Position numbers and translations under genes: made by a program
Source: a virus
Strand: one strand, 5' to 3'
Virus record (IMG/VR): IMGVR_UViG_3300046003_007336
Span: 1-64,000 of that record
Length of the DNA stretch: 64,000 bases
In this document: positions 2,701 through 56,600 of the stretch, piece by piece
Position numbering within the stretch: position 1 is the first letter of the stretch
How the letters are laid out: the number at the start of each line of letters is the position of its first letter
The notes under the pieces: generated by a model
What the model was told of the DNA's origin: nothing
The model's input: the letters and a program-made list of their open reading frames with translations, nothing else
Database searches by the model: none

Positions 2701-2955
2701 GCGATGGCGTGCCACAGTGGGTGATGAACCCATCTGTGGTTCCAGAGAATCAAAGTCTCTGGGGGTCGGGCCGACCCACGCCACCGCTGCCCTGCCGGAT
2801 TTGTGAGTAAACTCTCACGCTCTCGTCGATCACCCGGATGCTAGCCGGATGATATCTTTATGCGTTCGCTTCCGCCTCCTAGTCACCCATCGACGAGCTT
2901 ATAGGTTCAGGGCCGAGGCCCTAGTCCGACGATTTTATGTATGCTCCCAGCATGC
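2701..2955 (-). ncRNA. Candidate structured ncRNA with a four-way junction
   Basis: Closing helix 2701-2711/2777-2787 encloses three hairpins; further helices 2803-2818, 2822-2830/2889-2897, 2909-2922. Two A-C mismatches on + are G-U pairs on -. Confidence 0.5.
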
Positions 2956-45982: not shown

Positions 45983-46897
45983 ATGCATATCCTTTCCGTA
46001 GATCAGTTTGATCGTGCCTTCATAGATCGTCTCTTCTATCGCGCTGGTCGCTACGACCGCCTTTCCGCCAGGGAGCGGCATCGCGAAAGCCCGGCCGCGA
46101 ACAAGCTCCTGACCAATCTCTTCTATGAGCCGAGCACGCGAACGTCCTCGTCCTTTCATGCCGCGATGACGAAGCTCGGCGGCTCCGTCATCCCGATCAA
46201 CGACGTCACGTATTCAAGCGTGTCCAAAGGCGAGACCCTCGAAGACACCATACGGACGATGGCCTCCTACAGCGACGTCATCGTTCTCCGCCACACCGAG
46301 GTCGGCGCCGCTGCTCGCGCCGCTGCCGTGTCCCCGGTCCCGATCATCAACGCCGGGGACGGCGTCGGTGAGCACCCCACGCAAGCCCTTCTTGACCTCT
46401 TCACCATCCTGTCCGAGCAGGACCGTATCGACGGCATCACAGTCACGCTCGTGGGCGATCTCAAGCATGGTCGGACGGTCCACAGCCTGTCGAAGCTCCT
46501 CCGTCTATTCGACGTCCAGGTCAACTTCGTCGCCCCTTCTCATCTCGGGATGCCAGACCAATACACTCGCCCCGAGGATGGTTTCTCCTCAACGCTCGGA
46601 GATTTCATCGACACCTCAGACGTCATCTACATGACGCGGGTCCAGAAGGAGAGGTTCGTGGCGCGCGACCCATGGCCGGGTCAAATCGAGACCGACCCTG
46701 TTCTTGCCGACACCGACTATGGCATCACCGTCGATGACATGAAGGCCGCCAAGCCGACCATGTCCCTCATGCATCCGTTCCCCCGGAACGAGGAAATTCC
46801 AGTCGAAATCGACGCCGACCCGCGAGCGGCTTACTTCCGCCAGATGCGCAACGGCCTCCTGGTCCGCATGGCCCTCCTGGAAAGCGTTCTGGCGTGA
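45983..46897 (+). CDS. pyrB: Aspartate carbamoyltransferase catalytic subunit
   Basis: FYEPSTRT, SSVSKGETLEDT, DVIVLRH, INAGDG..EHPTQALLD, GDLKHGRTVHSL, YMTRVQKERF, MHPFPR. Confidence 0.95.
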   Translation: MHILSVDQFDRAFIDRLFYRAGRYDRLSARERHRESPAANKLLTNLFYEPSTRTSSSFHAAMTKLGGSVIPINDVTYSSVSKGETLEDTIRTMASYSDVIVLRHTEVGAAARAAAVSPVPIINAGDGVGEHPTQALLDLFTILSEQDRIDGITVTLVGDLKHGRTVHSLSKLLRLFDVQVNFVAPSHLGMPDQYTRPEDGFSSTLGDFIDTSDVIYMTRVQKERFVARDPWPGQIETDPVLADTDYGITVDDMKAAKPTMSLMHPFPRNEEIPVEIDADPRAAYFRQMRNGLLVRMALLESVLA

Positions 46898-51678: not shown

Positions 51679-52113
51679 ATGAAACTCGCGACCTATCAGT
51701 GCCAGTCCTGCAACAAGGATTTCGCCGCCCGCCCGGTTGACCGTGCGCGAGGCTGGGCGCGCTTCTGCTCCAAATCCTGCAAGGGTATTCGGCAGAAACA
51801 GAACGGCGGCACCCTCCCGAGGAAAGCCAAGCACGTGGCCGCGAACAAGACCCGTGCGGCGAACCGCAACGCGGGGATGACCGAGGTTCAAAAGCTTCGG
51901 GCACGCGCCGCAGGAGCCGCTCGCGCACAGGGCGTGGATATCAGGACGTGGTTGGAATACCGGCACACCTACGGGGGCAACCCGCAGTTTGATCGCCGGG
52001 GCAACTACGAGGGTTTCTCGGCTCGGTTCTCTGAGGAGGTCGAATACGACGAGTTCGAAGACCTCTACCGGGACATGAACATCGACAAGGTGGACGACGG
52101 CGGGCATCTGTGA
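51679..52113 (+). CDS. Zn-ribbon protein
   Basis: CQSC.KDF...RFCSKSC; TTGACG promoter at 51644. Confidence 0.65.
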   Translation: MKLATYQCQSCNKDFAARPVDRARGWARFCSKSCKGIRQKQNGGTLPRKAKHVAANKTRAANRNAGMTEVQKLRARAAGAARAQGVDIRTWLEYRHTYGGNPQFDRRGNYEGFSARFSEEVEYDEFEDLYRDMNIDKVDDGGHL

Positions 52114-52328
52114 GCGACGTCGAGATCGACCTTATAGTTCGGTCATCCGACCTCAGCTACGGAGTCCTCTCGCGCGAGCGAGAGGAACTCATCCAACTGG
52201 TCCAGCACGTTTCTCCAGGATGGGCGTCCCATTTTGCGCTGCGATGGCCAACTGACCCCACCGAGCCCCGATGGACCGTACTCGGCCTCACCGCCCACGA
52301 GGGAAGCAAGGTCATGCTGCTATGGTAG
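52110..52328 (+). CDS. Hypothetical protein, KLKMLW family
   Basis: WTVLGLTAHEGSKVMLLW. Confidence 0.65.
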   Translation: MSDVEIDLIVRSSDLSYGVLSREREELIQLVQHVSPGWASHFALRWPTDPTEPRWTVLGLTAHEGSKVMLLW

Positions 52329-52672
52329 AGGGAACGTGGTTCTGGTCCCACGGCTTCAAAGCCCTTGAGCCCGATCAGGCACCGCGCCCGTTTCGCTATA
52401 CGCTGAGTCAGCTTGAGGCGATGTCATGGGAAGACCAGATCAAGTCATTCCTGTCGAGATGGAACGTCACCGCAGAGGGCGAGGAAAAACCCATCGAGCG
52501 AATGGCGTTCATCCTCGAACACGGTATCAAGTTCCATAGCCATGTGGAACACCTGTCACGCGAAATGGCGACTTTCTACTATGTGAGCGTCCTCCTGCCC
52601 CCACGCCGCGCCGTTGAGTTCACACTCCGGTGGGATTTCTGGATGGAAGACGAATCGCCGGTCCCCAGCTAG
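52322..52672 (+). CDS. Hypothetical protein
   Basis: RAVEFTLRW. Confidence 0.55.
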   Translation: MVEGTWFWSHGFKALEPDQAPRPFRYTLSQLEAMSWEDQIKSFLSRWNVTAEGEEKPIERMAFILEHGIKFHSHVEHLSREMATFYYVSVLLPPRRAVEFTLRWDFWMEDESPVPS

Positions 52673-52729
52673 GCATAAATCGACGTTGTTGAATAAATAT
52701 GGGTCAACCCCTCTTGCAGGAGACCCCAC

Positions 52730-53137
52730 ATGGTCGATATTACTGATTTCAACGCTGATTGCGCCCGCTCGTCACTTGACGACGTGCTCAAGCACCTTCC
52801 CGGCATCGTCGCCGACGTCTACAACGATTCCGTCGTCACTGTCGCCGGAACCGCCTATACCCTCGACCCCCTGACTTCGGGCAAGGTCATTGAGTTCACC
52901 GCTGGCACCGCCGTAACGGTCACCCTGCCGAACTCGCTGCCGGTCGGCTTCCAAGTCACCGTTCGCCAAGCTGGCGCCGGTCAGGTCGGTTTCGCGGTCG
53001 CTTCTGGCGCAGTTCTCCGCAACCGCGCTTCGCAGACCAAGCTCAACGCCATCTGGGCTGTCGGCGCCCTGGCCGTTCGTGCCAACTCCAACGGAGCCAC
53101 CGCAGAATACGTTCTGAGCGGCGACACCGGAGCCTAA
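52730..53137 (+). CDS. Late virion protein (fibre/decoration-like beta domain)
   Basis: TAAATA near 52694; VTVTLPNSLPVGFQVTVRQAGAGQV; isolated late gene among early ORFs. Confidence 0.7.
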   Translation: MVDITDFNADCARSSLDDVLKHLPGIVADVYNDSVVTVAGTAYTLDPLTSGKVIEFTAGTAVTVTLPNSLPVGFQVTVRQAGAGQVGFAVASGAVLRNRASQTKLNAIWAVGALAVRANSNGATAEYVLSGDTGA

Positions 53138-53143
53138 TACCAA

Positions 53144-53165
53144 GAGGGGCACTTCGGTGCCCCTC
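53144..53165 (+). terminator. UUCG hairpin after the late gene
   Basis: gaggggcac-TTCG-gtgcccctc. Confidence 0.6.
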
Positions 53166-53204
53166 GCCCCTTGCACCAATATGGTGTTTCGCCGTAGATC
53201 GACT

Positions 53205-53399
53205 ATGGCCAGAATCGATCTTCCGATCAAAACACAAGACCTAAAACAACTCCCCATCGAGTTGGATTTTCTGTGCGATCTCATGCGCTCCTACGAAATC
53301 AGCTATCAGATAGTGTGGCCGCCAAACAAAAACTGGTGGTTCTGGTCTATCAGTGGCCTCGACGATAGCGACGCGACCAAACTGACGCTGCTGTGGTGA
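53205..53399 (+). CDS. Hypothetical protein, KLKMLW family
   Basis: WSISGLDDSDATKLTLLW. Confidence 0.65.
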   Translation: MARIDLPIKTQDLKQLPIELDFLCDLMRSYEISYQIVWPPNKNWWFWSISGLDDSDATKLTLLW

Positions 53400-53437
53400 C
53401 CGGCCGGAAATAAATCTCACCACCCGCATTTTTCTTA

Positions 53438-53468
53438 TTGACGCCAAATCGTCCTCGAAGTATAAATA
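53438..53468 (+). promoter_or_regulatory. Overlapping sigma70 and T4-type late promoter of the Ala/Pro operon
   Basis: TTGACG-N17-TATAAA, whose -10 box is also a perfect TATAAATA. Confidence 0.8.
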
Positions 53469-53475
53469 GGACGTT

Positions 53476-53583
53476 ATGTTGATCCTGTTCACCCTCGCTG
53501 CTCTGACCGCAGCCGCTGCCATCGCAGCGGGACAGGCCCCCGTGCGCTTCGCACCAGCCCCGGCTAGCCGACCGCGACCCTAA
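53476..53583 (+). CDS. Ala/Pro-rich leader peptide (35 aa)
   Basis: MLILFTLAALTAAAAIAAGQAPVRFAPAPASRPRP; 12 Ala (all four codons) and 5 Pro; starts 7 nt after the promoter. Confidence 0.55.
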   Translation: MLILFTLAALTAAAAIAAGQAPVRFAPAPASRPRP

Positions 53584-53666
53584 AGGGTAGCGGTATATAA
53601 GCAGCCAGGATGGTGATCGGCGCGATGCCGATACGTCCAGCAAAACAATCTAGGAAACGTGGCCTT

Positions 53667-53742
<76 letters not shown>

Positions 53743-53767
53743 CGTCCTAGTATTCACGATGTGTCAT

Positions 53768-53844
53768 CGGGGTATAGCTCAGTCTGGTAGAGCACTCGCT
53801 TTGGGAGCGAGGGGTCAAGAGTTCGAATCCCTTTACCCCGACCA
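53768..53844 (+). tRNA. tRNA-Pro(UGG)
   Basis: Cloverleaf, C1:G72, encoded CCA. Confidence 0.95.
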
Positions 53845-53874
53845 CACGTGAATCCTTCAAGGTATCTGCTCAGT

Positions 53875-53948
53875 CGGGGTGTAGCGCAGTCTGGTAGCGC
53901 ACTGGTCTCGGAGTCCAGGGGTCGTAGGTTCGAGTCCTACCGTCCCGA
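53875..53948 (+). tRNA. tRNA-Pro(CGG), CCA not encoded
   Basis: Cloverleaf with CT-CGG-AG loop; ends ...CCCG-A-CT. Confidence 0.85.
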
Positions 53949-53969
53949 CTGAACAGATAGTTTGATCAT

Positions 53970-54026
53970 CGGGGGAGGCCGTGAGAGGCCAGTGCACTGA
54001 GGTGAAAATCCTCCACCCCCCGTCCA
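53970..54026 (+). ncRNA. 57-nt mini tRNA-like element without an anticodon arm
   Basis: CGGGGG/CCCCCG stem, GGCC-GTGAGA-GGCC arm, GAGG-TGAAAAT-CCTC T-like arm, 3' TCCA. Confidence 0.5.
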
Positions 54027-54035
54027 AACCATCTT

Positions 54036-54111
54036 GGGGTCTTAGCTCATCTGGTAGAGCGCAACACTGGCAGTGTTGAGGTGGCGGGTTCGAGTCCCGC
54101 AGATTCCACCA
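54036..54111 (+). tRNA. tRNA-Ala(GGC)
   Basis: Cloverleaf, G3:U70, CCA. Confidence 0.95.
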
Positions 54112-54115
54112 TTCA

Positions 54116-54215
54116 TGGGCGTGTCGGCGACAACGGGGGCTACCCCGCTAGGCCACCTGCGGTCGGCCCGAAAGGGGGCTTCAGGGAGAGGTGCAAGGCC
54201 TCTCGCGTTCCACCA
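54116..54215 (+). ncRNA. Non-canonical tRNA-like RNA with Ala identity (100 nt)
   Basis: TGGGCGT/GCGTTCC-A-CCA acceptor (G3:U70); GAGAGG-TGCAAGG-CCTCTC T-like arm; extra internal hairpins. Confidence 0.6.
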
Positions 54216-54248
54216 ACCCCGGCGCAATCCCGCGCCACGAGAACCGAT

Positions 54249-54419
54249 ATGGACAAGAAGACGGAGAAGAAAAAGAAGAAACTGCTAGATCGCATCGCCG
54301 AACTGGAAACCGAACTCCGGCAGTCGCTGGGGAAGAAGGATAGTCGCACCGTCGAGATCGACGTGCCGTCCCAGATGCGGAAGATCGCCGATTTGCAGGC
54401 ACAAGTATCGCGGATGTAA
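54249..54419 (+). CDS. Small basic coiled-coil protein inside the tRNA cluster
   Basis: MDKKTEKKKKKLLDRIAELETELRQSLGKK... Confidence 0.65.
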   Translation: MDKKTEKKKKKLLDRIAELETELRQSLGKKDSRTVEIDVPSQMRKIADLQAQVSRM

Positions 54420-54425
54420 ATCCAC

Positions 54426-54500
54426 GGGGATATAGCTTAACGGGTAAAGCGCGCCCCTCGCACGGGCAAGTCTGCGGTTCGATTCCGCATATCTCCACCA
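54426..54500 (+). tRNA. tRNA-Ala(CGC)
   Basis: Cloverleaf, CT-CGC-AC loop, G3:U70, CCA. Confidence 0.9.
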
Positions 54501-54505
54501 ACAAC

Positions 54506-54577
54506 GGGCGGCACAGCCAGTGCAATGGGAATAAGCTTTCCCAGAAGAGTGGGAGTGGCTCTCCCCTCCGTCCACCA
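54506..54577 (+). ncRNA. Degenerate tRNA-like RNA with Ala identity (72 nt)
   Basis: GGGCGG/CCGTCC-A-CCA (G3:U70); TGGGAA-TAAGCT-TTCCCA and GGGAG-TGGCT-CTCCC arms. Confidence 0.55.
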
Positions 54578-54582
54578 AACAG

Positions 54583-54661
54583 GGGCCAGAGAACCACAGG
54601 CGTGGTTCGACGGTGAAGGGGGTCGCTCCTCCATGGGGTTCGATGCCCCACTGGTCCACCA
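54583..54661 (+). ncRNA. Non-canonical tRNA-like RNA with Ala identity (79 nt)
   Basis: GGGCCAG/CTGGTCC-A-CCA (G3:U70); 7-bp D-like arm with 4-nt loop; TGGGG-TTCGATG-CCCCA T arm; no canonical anticodon loop. Confidence 0.65.
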
Positions 54662-54690
54662 TTTCAACACCAACATCCTGGGAGGATGCT

Positions 54691-55544
54691 ATGACACTGC
54701 GGGACGCCTAACAGAGACCTACCGGACTTTCTGCCTCGAACGCGGCATTGAGTTTCATGAGGTCAAGAGTGTGAGACCACACGACAACACGACCTTGTTC
54801 TGCCCTGCGGGGATGCAGCAGTTCAAGGAAGACTACCGGGGACATCGTCGCGGGACCGTATCCAATATTCAGTCCTGCATCCGGCTCAATGATCTGGATG
54901 AAATCGGCGACCAAACCCACCACCTAACCTTCGACATGATCGGGCTGTTTTCGTTCCGTGACATGAGCGTTCTGGAGACCATCGATTTCTGGTTCGAATT
55001 CCTCTCCAAGATTGGCATCAAGCCCGACGTGGTCACCATCCACCCGGACAAGATGCTGGACTGGCGAGAACTCTATCGGGGCCGCGACGTAGAAATACGG
55101 CCGGACCCGGAGTGCACGTGGTCGGACGGCGGCATGGGTGGATACTGCACGGAGTTCTACGTCAGAGGCGTGGAGATCGGCAACATCGTGAATACCAACG
55201 GAGATTCAATCGACGTCGGTTTCGGGATGGAACGCCTTCTCTGGGTTCTCGGCGAAGAAACGCCACCGCGTGGGGACATCCTGGTCCGCACCATCGACCG
55301 CATCGTTGAGTCGGGATACCGGCCCAGCGGCAAGCAGCAGGGTCATGTGCTCCGGCGCCTGATCGGGTTGCTGACAGACGAGGGCAGCCATCCCAACCAC
55401 CCCGAGGTCGTCAGCGAGACGTCCAGACGGGTGAAGCTCTCGGAACGCTTCGACCGCCTTTGGCCGAAGCATCAAGACAAGTCGCCAGAGTGGTGGCTGG
55501 ACACCCACGGTATCGTGGTGTCTGAAATGGTCCTCAGGGTGTAG
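54691..55544 (+). CDS. alaS: Minimal alanyl-tRNA synthetase (aminoacylation core only); SD-linked ATG 54691 is out of frame with the body
   Basis: TTLFCPAGMQQFK, QSCIRLNDLDEIG...HHLTFDMIGLFSF, IDVGFGMERL, GYRPSGKQQGHVLRRL and WLDTHG match the AlaRS core motifs in order; ~280 aa, no editing or C-Ala domain. Confidence 0.85.
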
Positions 55545-55609
55545 CTCAGTGGCAGAGCGCACGGTCGGGAATCGTGAGGCCGGGATTTCAAAATTCCCCA
55601 CCCTGACCA
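55535..55609 (+). tRNA. tRNA-Pro(GGG), overlapping the alaS stop
   Basis: CAGGGTG/CACCCTG-A-CCA; loop TC-GGG-AA (C33 instead of U33). Confidence 0.85.
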
Positions 55610-55654
55610 TTTCATCTGAACCTCAGCACATGAGGTCCGAAGATAAATAGATGC

Positions 55655-56083
55655 ATGAAGTCATGCACCAAATGTAAACACATACTCACAGACGATCAGT
55701 TCTCAGCGAAAAATTTGACTAAAAACGCTGCGTGGTGTCGCCCCTGCATCAAGGCATATGATCAGGCCAGATGGTCTGCCGGTTCTCGACGAGAAACCAA
55801 AATCGAACAGACAAAAATTTGTCGCCGAAGAAACCGTCAGCATGTTTGGGACTACCTGACTAGGAATCCATGTCCTTGCGGCGAGACAGACCCCATCGTT
55901 CTAGAATTTGACCACCGCGATGGAATGGAAACAAAACGAGGCAATATATGCGAGATGGCCTCACGGGGCCTGTCGATAGAAACTATCGATGCGGAGATCG
56001 CCAAATGCGACGTGCTATGTGCGAACTGCCATAGACGAAAAACGGCAAAGCAGTTCGGCTGGCACGCCGATCTTATTACTTGA
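55655..56083 (+). mobile_element. HNH endonuclease with N-terminal Zn finger
   Basis: CTKC...WCRPC; CPCGETDPIVLEFDH...KCDVLCANCHRRKT; TAAATA at 55644-55649. Confidence 0.8.
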
Positions 56084-56137
56084 CAAGTATCCCACGGCTG
56101 CTATGTTGGTCCCTACACAGACCCGAGGAACGCCCCG

Positions 56138-56454
56138 TGGACGCCATCGATTTCCAAGACGCCAAGCTGCGCATGATGCCGACCGGCCAGGAGCGGGAAC
56201 TCGCCCTGATGCTGTGGCGCGCGCAAGCCGAGGTCAAGCGTGCCGAGGAGGCCATGGAAGCCTACTACGCCCCGCTCGTTCATGCCTGCTCGACCCCGGA
56301 AGAGTTGCAGAAGATCATGCCCCGGATGCCCGACGCGGTGTTCAAGGTCTTCGTCTGCGACTATCTCAAATACGGTCGCGACTGGTCGAAGACCCACGAG
56401 GCCAGCGAAGCCGCTCGCATCGCCGCCAACGAAGCCAGGAAGGCCGCCCAATGA
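56138..56454 (+). CDS. Hypothetical protein
   Basis: GTG after GAGG; TTGACA-GCTATGTT promoter at 56080. Confidence 0.6.
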
Positions 56455-56600
56455 CCGAAGCCGAACTCCTCAAGATCGAGGACAACGAGGAATTCCTCAA
56501 GGCCCTCGCAGCCACCCTGTCGCCTGCTCTGCGGGAGCGCGTCGTGGATTGCGCCGATTCGCTTGGCAGCTACGCCGCTGACGACTATGACCGCCAACAA
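56451..56600 (+). CDS. Small hypothetical protein
   Basis: ATGA overlap. Confidence 0.5.

Follow-up and report, generated by a model that had tools for sequence, protein, structure and literature searches.

Among the described systems with which the locus analyzed here can be compared are the leader-peptide attenuators of Escherichia coli—trpL, hisL, leuL, pheL, the multivalent thrL and ilvL, and pheM, the last of which stands before pheST—and to our knowledge leaders for Ala and Pro are not among that classical set. In the mgtP (mgtCBR) and mgtL (mgtA) of Salmonella, as well as in tnaC, a ribosome that stalls on Pro codons, or where a Pro codon meets the stop, alters downstream transcription, which leaders act without a classical trp-type terminator, being either Rho-dependent or structure-dependent; and coupling of the pyrBI type is likewise established in E. 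coli. The tRNA genes of phages, for their part, are usually seen either as a fixed complement to codon usage or as replacements for tRNAs that defense systems cleave, and little is known to us about what sets their expression. The closest precedent in the literature is a cyanobacterial tRNA array under the control of a repressor: the trn operon of Anabaena is induced by translational stress through TrcR, a DNA-binding repressor that acts at direct repeats over the -10 element and the start site and that is not amino-acid specific (PMC8421152, PMC10272220). The words leader, attenuator, and terminator are absent from PMC8421152, and our search of the full-text literature turned up no account of tRNA genes controlled by a leader peptide, whether in phages or in cells.

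The DNA that we analyzed, hereafter the window, is a stretch of 64 kb that constitutes the first part of the 198.5-kb IMG/VR virus record IMGVR_UViG_3300046003_007336; positions beyond the window are given as those of the genome, by which we mean the whole record. The record has 58% GC and a completeness of about 44% (CheckV), and in its DNA polymerase it comes closest to a pair of complete phages (424 and 457 kb; about 60% identity in that protein). From the tmRNA, which is made in two pieces and belongs to the alphaproteobacterial type, we infer an alphaproteobacterial host. The sequence of the record was present in several lake-water metagenome runs, in four of which the pieces covering the leader—at low depth—were identical to the window, so that those copies offered no variation usable for a microdiversity analysis. 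Along the record the tRNA genes called by ARAGORN are grouped by amino acid, with a single tRNA-Met located apart from the following multi-tRNA clusters:

53667-55609, + strand: six Ala/Pro tRNA genes (three Ala, three Pro)
genome 65868-66302: five Gly/Glu tRNA genes
genome 80619-81169: five Leu tRNA genes

A further ARAGORN call, a tRNA-Gln at 2709-2790 (- strand), was considered as a fourth case and rejected, as the Rfam tRNA model gave no match there and no Gln-rich ORF was present. This call is 82 nt long and places the anticodon at position 38; in the region upstream (2791-2965), about 170 nt away, there are a promoter-like site and a terminator, and the locus may correspond to a different small RNA.

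All three of the multi-tRNA clusters (3/3) are preceded by a promoter and by a leader ORF that is matched to the amino acids of the cluster itself. We propose, with a probability that we would place at roughly 0.55, that the leader ORF before the Ala/Pro cluster is a functional codon-matched sensor, which ORF would set the output of the operon behind it. The promoter and the leader consist of these parts:

53438-53466, + strand: sigma-70-type promoter, near consensus (TTGACG, 17-nt spacer, TATAAA)
53473-53666, + strand: structured 5' leader of about 194 nt in the predicted transcript
53476-53583, + strand: 35-codon leader ORF (12 Ala, 5 Pro) with a putative start of the leaderless type
53497-53532, + strand: Ala run, with 8 Ala in 12 codons (codons 8-19)
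53551-53580, + strand: C-terminal sensor block formed by the final 10 codons, with 3 Ala and 4 Pro, ending in CGA-CCG-CGA-CCC before the stop

The operon that follows comprises six tRNA genes—each scoring above the Rfam tRNA threshold—and two further ORFs:

53667-53742, + strand: tRNA-Ala(UGC)
53768-53844, + strand: tRNA-Pro(UGG)
53875-53949, + strand: tRNA-Pro(CGG)
54036-54111, + strand: tRNA-Ala(GGC)
54249-54419, + strand: Lys-rich ORF of 56 codons between tRNA-Ala(GGC) and tRNA-Ala(CGC), probably a coiled coil, without a Pfam family
54426-54500, + strand: tRNA-Ala(CGC)
54525-55544, + strand: mini alanyl-tRNA synthetase (AlaRS)-like ORF with the class II core only (PF01411)
55535-55609, + strand: tRNA-Pro(GGG), overlapping the final codons of the AlaRS-like ORF

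The mini-AlaRS-like ORF matches PF01411 over residues 64-173 with E = 3e-18, the homology to its relatives (47-58% identity) beginning near 54690, and would be co-transcribed with the tRNAs. It can be read as a single open frame from 54525 or from an ATG at 54633; an ATG at 54691 preceded by a Shine-Dalgarno (SD) site belongs to a different frame, which frame ends after six codons. Around the tRNA clusters, several small neighboring ORFs (52110-53399 of the window; genome 64886-65397, 66979-67755, and 79828-80103) possess a similar aromatic/Leu C-terminal motif, such as ...MLLW, ...LTLLW, ...FQLAF, ...FQLRFC, or ...LRLFFG, which similarity suggests that they form a large paralogous protein family. 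Two other candidates in the region were discarded: a gene on the - strand that would overlap the leader (ORFs 53350-53643 and 53241-53522), in that the neighbors are all on the + strand and those ORFs would cross the promoter; and a recurring CGTCCA...AAAC motif near the hairpins of the operon, whose copies throughout the genome are too few and too scattered.

In its general design the Ala/Pro leader resembles the E. coli attenuators, being a short ORF right behind a promoter and rich in the codons of the supply that would be sensed; with thrL and ilvL it would share the sensing of two amino acids, and with pheM a controlled product that is part of the translation apparatus. It differs from all of those in that the genes controlled would be tRNA genes together with a mini-AlaRS, in a phage, and in having neither a U-tract terminator nor an SD site, the geometry being that of a leaderless start. 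The likeness to the trn operon of Anabaena lies in an accessory tRNA array that would respond to the state of translation, whereas the control of trn is exerted by a DNA-binding repressor devoid of amino-acid specificity.

As strong sigma-70 promoters we counted sites with TTGACN, a spacer of 16-18 nt, and at least 5/6 of TATAAT, of which only three occur in the 198.5-kb record (53438, 65645, and 100993), the site at 65645 being the one that heads the Gly/Glu leader. One promoter scan, which demands a T at position 6 of the -10, passed over 53438-53466. Transcription would start at about 53473, 7 nt past the -10, and the leader ORF begins with the first ATG behind the promoter, which ATG lies 9 nt past the -10 in both the Ala/Pro and the Gly/Glu leaders. 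As the ORF starts at the first ATG after the promoter in all three leaders, there was no freedom of choice in selecting it; and, since an in-frame stop is located at 53467-53469, three codons before the ATG, no longer version of the Ala/Pro ORF exists. Within the predicted transcript of that leader we found no SD site; the fixed spacing between the -10 and the ATG suggests a leaderless or near-leaderless start with about three extra 5' nucleotides, from which the ORF would be translated. In Caulobacter, leaderless mRNAs are translated as efficiently as leadered ones (PMC4117421). For the tRNA-Met and the tmRNA of the same phage, the promoter abuts the gene with no leader in between, so that a leader of about 190 nt is not required merely to make a tRNA.

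The first-pass annotation of this DNA had described an Ala/Pro-rich leader peptide beginning at 53476 and had related its two amino acids to the tRNAs served downstream, which description holds: the ORF is present with the 12 Ala and 5 Pro codons and reads as given, and each of the six downstream anticodons (Ala UGC, GGC, and CGC; Pro UGG, CGG, and GGG) finds at least one cognate codon within it. Because all the types of Ala and Pro codons needed for that purpose occur—GCT four times, GCC four times, GCA three times, and GCG once; CCC twice, CCG twice, and CCA once—every downstream anticodon is queried. Ala and Pro make up 17 of the 34 residues, whereas in the six-frame translation of the genome they account for 15.8% (binomial p = 3.6e-6), and of the roughly 865 comparably sized ORFs in the record none but the leader ORF reaches that fraction; the two remaining frames of the same region contain 9 and 7. 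The same annotation had cautioned that GC-rich DNA by itself enriches for such codons, and had named a shuffled background as the check. In dinucleotide-preserving shuffles of the ORF we obtained 11.0 ± 2.1 Ala plus Pro in frame, with 17 or more in 29/5000, and therefore the local GC-rich composition accounts for part of the enrichment—11 of the 17—but not for all, an excess in frame being left. Residues 2-19 of the peptide are nearly all hydrophobic and lead into an Ala-X-Ala-like stretch; the N-terminal half resembles a signal peptide.

The whole leader (197 nt) has a minimum free energy of about -78 kcal/mol (z = -2.6), a value as good being reached by 3/200 shuffles. Three hairpins that had been listed in the first pass (53542-53554, 53561-53570, and 53571-53594) proved real; they are given here, with their fold energies, together with the other elements predicted:

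53513-53530, + strand: 7-bp hairpin within the Ala run, -12.2 kcal/mol
53542-53554, + strand: hairpin, -4.7 kcal/mol
53561-53570, + strand: weak palindrome, -1.2 kcal/mol
53571-53594, + strand: hairpin (-13.8 kcal/mol) whose tetraloop holds the UAA stop codon; the sequence after it, TATATAAG, is rich in A and U
53552-53615, + strand: alternative long helix (53552-53567 with 53600-53615) around the stop hairpin, of antiterminator-like topology
53611-53639, + strand: last hairpin before the tRNAs, -12.0 kcal/mol, with an A-rich stretch and no U tract behind
53651-53663, + strand: segment 4-16 nt before the first tRNA, which in the fold without a ribosome pairs with the region of the start codon (53473-53487)

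In the modeled fold without a ribosome, the Ala codons at 53497-53502 also pair with 53600-53605, so that the leader closes on itself. With a ribosome placed over the Ala run, the long helix 53552-53567:53600-53615 attains a pair probability of about 1.0, as opposed to 0.09-0.17 otherwise. The lower stem of the hairpin 53611-53639 competes with this helix: its probability is 0.00 with the ribosome stalled in the Ala run and rises to 0.62 once the ribosome has reached the stop. In the same modeling, a ribosome located on the C-terminal Pro codons or on the stop prevents the long helix from forming, and the lower stem closes. As modeled thermodynamically, then, the leader has mutually exclusive pairings between which the position of the ribosome chooses, which behavior is that expected of an attenuator; and in that alternation, as in having the stop codon within a hairpin loop, it is like the E. 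coli systems. The hairpins are built from GCUGC/GCAGC arms, and because Ala codons are intrinsically self-complementary, some of the leader structure may simply follow from the use of these codons. A sequestration of the first tRNA by the leader was considered and rejected, in that the cloverleaf forms in every state modeled, for the Ala/Pro as well as for the Gly/Glu leader.

Regarding the output of such a device, no hairpin followed by a U tract occurs in 53473-53680; the output element of a classical attenuator is therefore missing, and lacking an intrinsic terminator the Ala/Pro leader is not filed here as a proven attenuator. A textbook U-tract terminator is present after the tRNA-Met of the same phage (74170-74215), and canonical U-tract terminators over 44-64 kb are no commoner than in shuffles. 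The hairpin 53571-53594 was rejected as a terminator, since its tail has only about three U among A's, and since it would have the wrong sign for Ala because stalls in the Ala run leave it intact. With respect to a T-box, no Rfam match was obtained at E <= 1 in 52500-56500, nor did any Rfam family match the Ala/Pro leader convincingly, a weak YrlA-like match having been dismissed (23 bits, where the gathering score is 69). The C/G ratio is 1.3-1.6 over the leader ORF and 0.7-0.9 past the stop; the 95th percentile of the genome is 1.73. The values of the leader fall under that percentile and are not distinctive, and no Rho entry site is evident. With mgtP, mgtL, and tnaC the Ala/Pro leader shares the Pro codons in the ORF and the lack of a trp-type terminator; unlike those leaders, which control protein-coding genes, it stands before tRNA genes, and it has no standout rut-like signal.

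The two other multi-tRNA clusters are headed by leaders of the same design:

genome 65645-65867: Gly/Glu leader, with an ORF at 65683-65796 of 37 codons, 9 Gly and 2 Glu (11/36)
genome 80397-80618: Leu leader, with an SD-preceded ORF at 80463-80513 of 16 codons, 6/15 Leu

The Gly/Glu leader also contains a hairpin at 65746-65783 (-22.5 kcal/mol), after which a moderately U-rich tail is found inside the ORF. The Leu ORF has four consecutive Leu codons, and the promoter before the Leu cluster is similar to that of the Gly/Glu leader. When the three leaders were compared with the three clusters in a 3x3 matrix, the diagonal p values were 3.6e-6, 2.1e-3, and 4.2e-4, whereas off the diagonal all were at least 0.2 except the lowest, 0.04, which reflects a marginal Leu excess in the Gly/Glu ORF; the joint Fisher p for three matched leader-cluster pairs is about 1e-9. 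In dinucleotide shuffles of the two sister ORFs the observed match was reached in 3/5000 and 53/5000.

Beyond the codon match, the Ala/Pro and Gly/Glu ORFs open with similar codons, the stop codon is placed in a hairpin tetraloop in two of the three leaders (Ala/Pro and Leu), and all three ORFs have CGA as codon -4, followed at -3 by a cognate codon (CCG, GGT, and CTG), although CGA represents 1.1% of the codons in the long ORFs of the genome. On these resemblances of sequence, the three leaders look like paralogues whose test codons would have been re-tailored for each cluster. A C-terminal Pro slows termination, as is known from TnaC and from SsrA-tagging studies, and in yeast a CGA in the P site, read by inosine wobble, impairs the decoding of the next codon; by analogy, one or the other effect could sharpen the CGA-CCG-CGA-CCC-stop end of the Ala/Pro ORF as a test site.

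A more complete system of this kind is found in the 424-kb relative, G006 (IMG/VR UViG 3300017565_000001), which phage has a leader-peptide attenuator at L100:3640-3862, corresponding to about 171940-172160 of its record. The leader ORF is SD-preceded and 36 codons long, with 15 Ser/Tyr/Glu, a number reached by 0/5000 shuffles, and with Ser/Tyr/Glu/Gly/Cys accounting for 24/36 residues; directly behind it is a Ser-Tyr-Glu-Tyr-Glu tRNA array, continued by Glu and Gly-Gly-Cys. The final codons of the ORF pair, as a 15-bp antiterminator, with the 5' arm of a strong U-tract hairpin, which antiterminator helix is the stable fold before the 3' arm has been made (-31.7 kcal/mol); in the modeling, a ribosome at the stop codon masks the antiterminator, and only the terminator is left. 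As modeled, this leader is a textbook attenuator in which stalling leads to read-through; it would qualify as a ribosome-mediated one, and is apparently unpublished, as we did not find it described. The Ala/Pro leader resembles it in belonging to the same phage clade and in having a cognate-enriched ORF whose stop codon falls in the loop of a hairpin that is itself enclosed by a helix; but whereas the G006 leader has an SD site, the 15-bp antiterminator, and the U-tract terminator, the Ala/Pro leader has topological equivalents only.

As a control we scanned 51 tRNA sub-clusters of G006, of G007—these two being related megaphages—and of Xanthomonas phage XacN1, and obtained one convincing match (the G006 attenuator), one spurious, and one borderline. 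The spurious match (corrected p = 1.7e-4) was a mini-ORF of G006 that is rich in Arg and precedes an Arg/Ala pair; it was rejected, as it lies inside a tRNA-like remnant with a T-arm and a CCA-like end (L101:8470-8550) that ARAGORN does not call; that a corrected p of this size arose among the controls implies that codon-match statistics alone can mislead. The borderline one, in XacN1 (AP018399.1, about 46100-46230; L148:9746-9870), is an ORF of 41 codons that stands in front of a Phe-Asp tRNA pair and contains 7 Asp and 2 Phe (corrected p about 0.013), which makes this cultured phage a borderline candidate for carrying the design. No orthologues of the Ala/Pro leader were found in viral or metagenome contigs; the AlaRS-like relatives in such contigs reach at most 58% identity, and the DNA-polymerase relatives at most 64%. 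An adjacent Ala/Pro tRNA array was absent from the viral AlaRS-like loci, and neither an exact 30-mer of tRNA-Pro(CGG) nor a degenerate peptide pattern for the Ala run gave any match in viral contigs.

If, as one alternative, the leader were an untranslated structured 5' part of the tRNA precursor that served in processing or stability, the Ala/Pro frame would be a by-product of GCN-periodic hairpin arms. The self-complementary GCUGC/GCAGC arms that make the hairpins, the 11/34 Ala plus Pro that the shuffles already yield, and the spurious Arg-rich ORF in one control region would all be compatible with such an origin, as would the lack of an SD site and of a U-tract terminator; what that origin leaves unexplained is that three leaders are each enriched, in frame, for the amino acids of their own cluster, that they have in common the CGA-plus-cognate pair before the stop, and that the distance from the -10 to the ATG is constant in two of them. 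With a complete attenuator of the same logic in G006 as an additional argument against it, we consider this explanation doubtful.

We therefore return to the codon-matched sensor, of which the first-pass annotation had anticipated the general form in proposing that ribosome stalling upon depletion of Ala or Pro tRNA switches on the tRNA genes. That attenuator reading stands in part: the promoter-first ORF, the codon match, the two sister leaders, and the G006 system argue in its favor, whereas the hairpins that had been listed do not provide a terminator/antiterminator pair. According to our proposal, the leader ORF would be translated, and in so being would report the speed of the ribosome on Ala and Pro codons. 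Were a ribosome to halt in the Ala run, the helix 53552-53567:53600-53615 would form around the stop-codon hairpin and the base of the hairpin 53611-53639 would open. Slow decoding, due to a scarcity of charged tRNA-Ala or tRNA-Pro, would thus favor the open state, with more read-through or more productive precursor as the consequence, and fast decoding the closed state, with less output from the operon; the net effect would be an amino-acid-specific feedback on the phage tRNA supply. Of this scheme, the sensing part is likely; the output step could lie in 5' processing of the precursor, in a pause, or in a stop that is non-canonical or depends on a factor. The sign of the response is one that we would assign to the Ala/Pro leader by analogy with the G006 attenuator.

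The ORF might, on the other hand, be translated and yet be coupled with the opposite sign or in a nonregulatory manner, a ribosome that follows the RNA polymerase helping it onward through the hairpins or shielding the transcript from Rho, in which circumstance good decoding would result in more tRNA and stalling in less. In the lack of a terminator/antiterminator pair, the pyrBI-type coupling is the known alternative, and the leader is indeed hairpin-rich; the ORF region, moreover, is moderately C-rich (C/G up to 1.6), though still under the 95th percentile, and with the Gly/Glu leader being G-rich no Rho entry site common to the leaders is evident. Since, in addition, a positive feedback on the tRNA supply would be without obvious benefit, and since the geometry of G006 gives read-through upon a stall, we judge this second alternative to be improbable. 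Finally, a small hydrophobic peptide—signal-peptide-like or membrane-active—having a function of its own, with the tRNA match as something coincidental or secondary, is very unlikely, because although the hydrophobic residues 2-19 with the Ala-X-Ala-like stretch after them and the likewise signal-like peptide of the Leu leader would fit such a role, the Gly/Glu peptide is not hydrophobic and yet has the same design, no homologues of the peptide were found in viral contigs, the flanking proteins scanned matched no family, and hydrophobicity is an automatic result of the richness in Ala and Leu.

A broader form of the codon-matched sensor, which we put forward tentatively as a possibility, would be an amino-acid-resolved tRNA homeostat, in which each cluster has a paralogous leader ORF with a sensitized CGA-cognate test site located three codons ahead of a stop codon in a hairpin loop; in the Ala/Pro and Leu copies the stalled ribosome would then act through an output other than an intrinsic terminator. 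The Ala/Pro leader, in presenting the topology of an attenuator without the U-tract terminator, may point to a different output step. If the sensor reading is true, the tRNA supply of this phage would be self-adjusting, one amino-acid family at a time, and a textbook bacterial mechanism would extend from the genes for amino-acid synthesis and for synthetases to tRNA genes and to viruses; and if the homeostat is true as well, a depletion of tRNAs—for example, by anticodon nucleases of the host—would be answered with exactly the matching tRNAs, along with the AlaRS.
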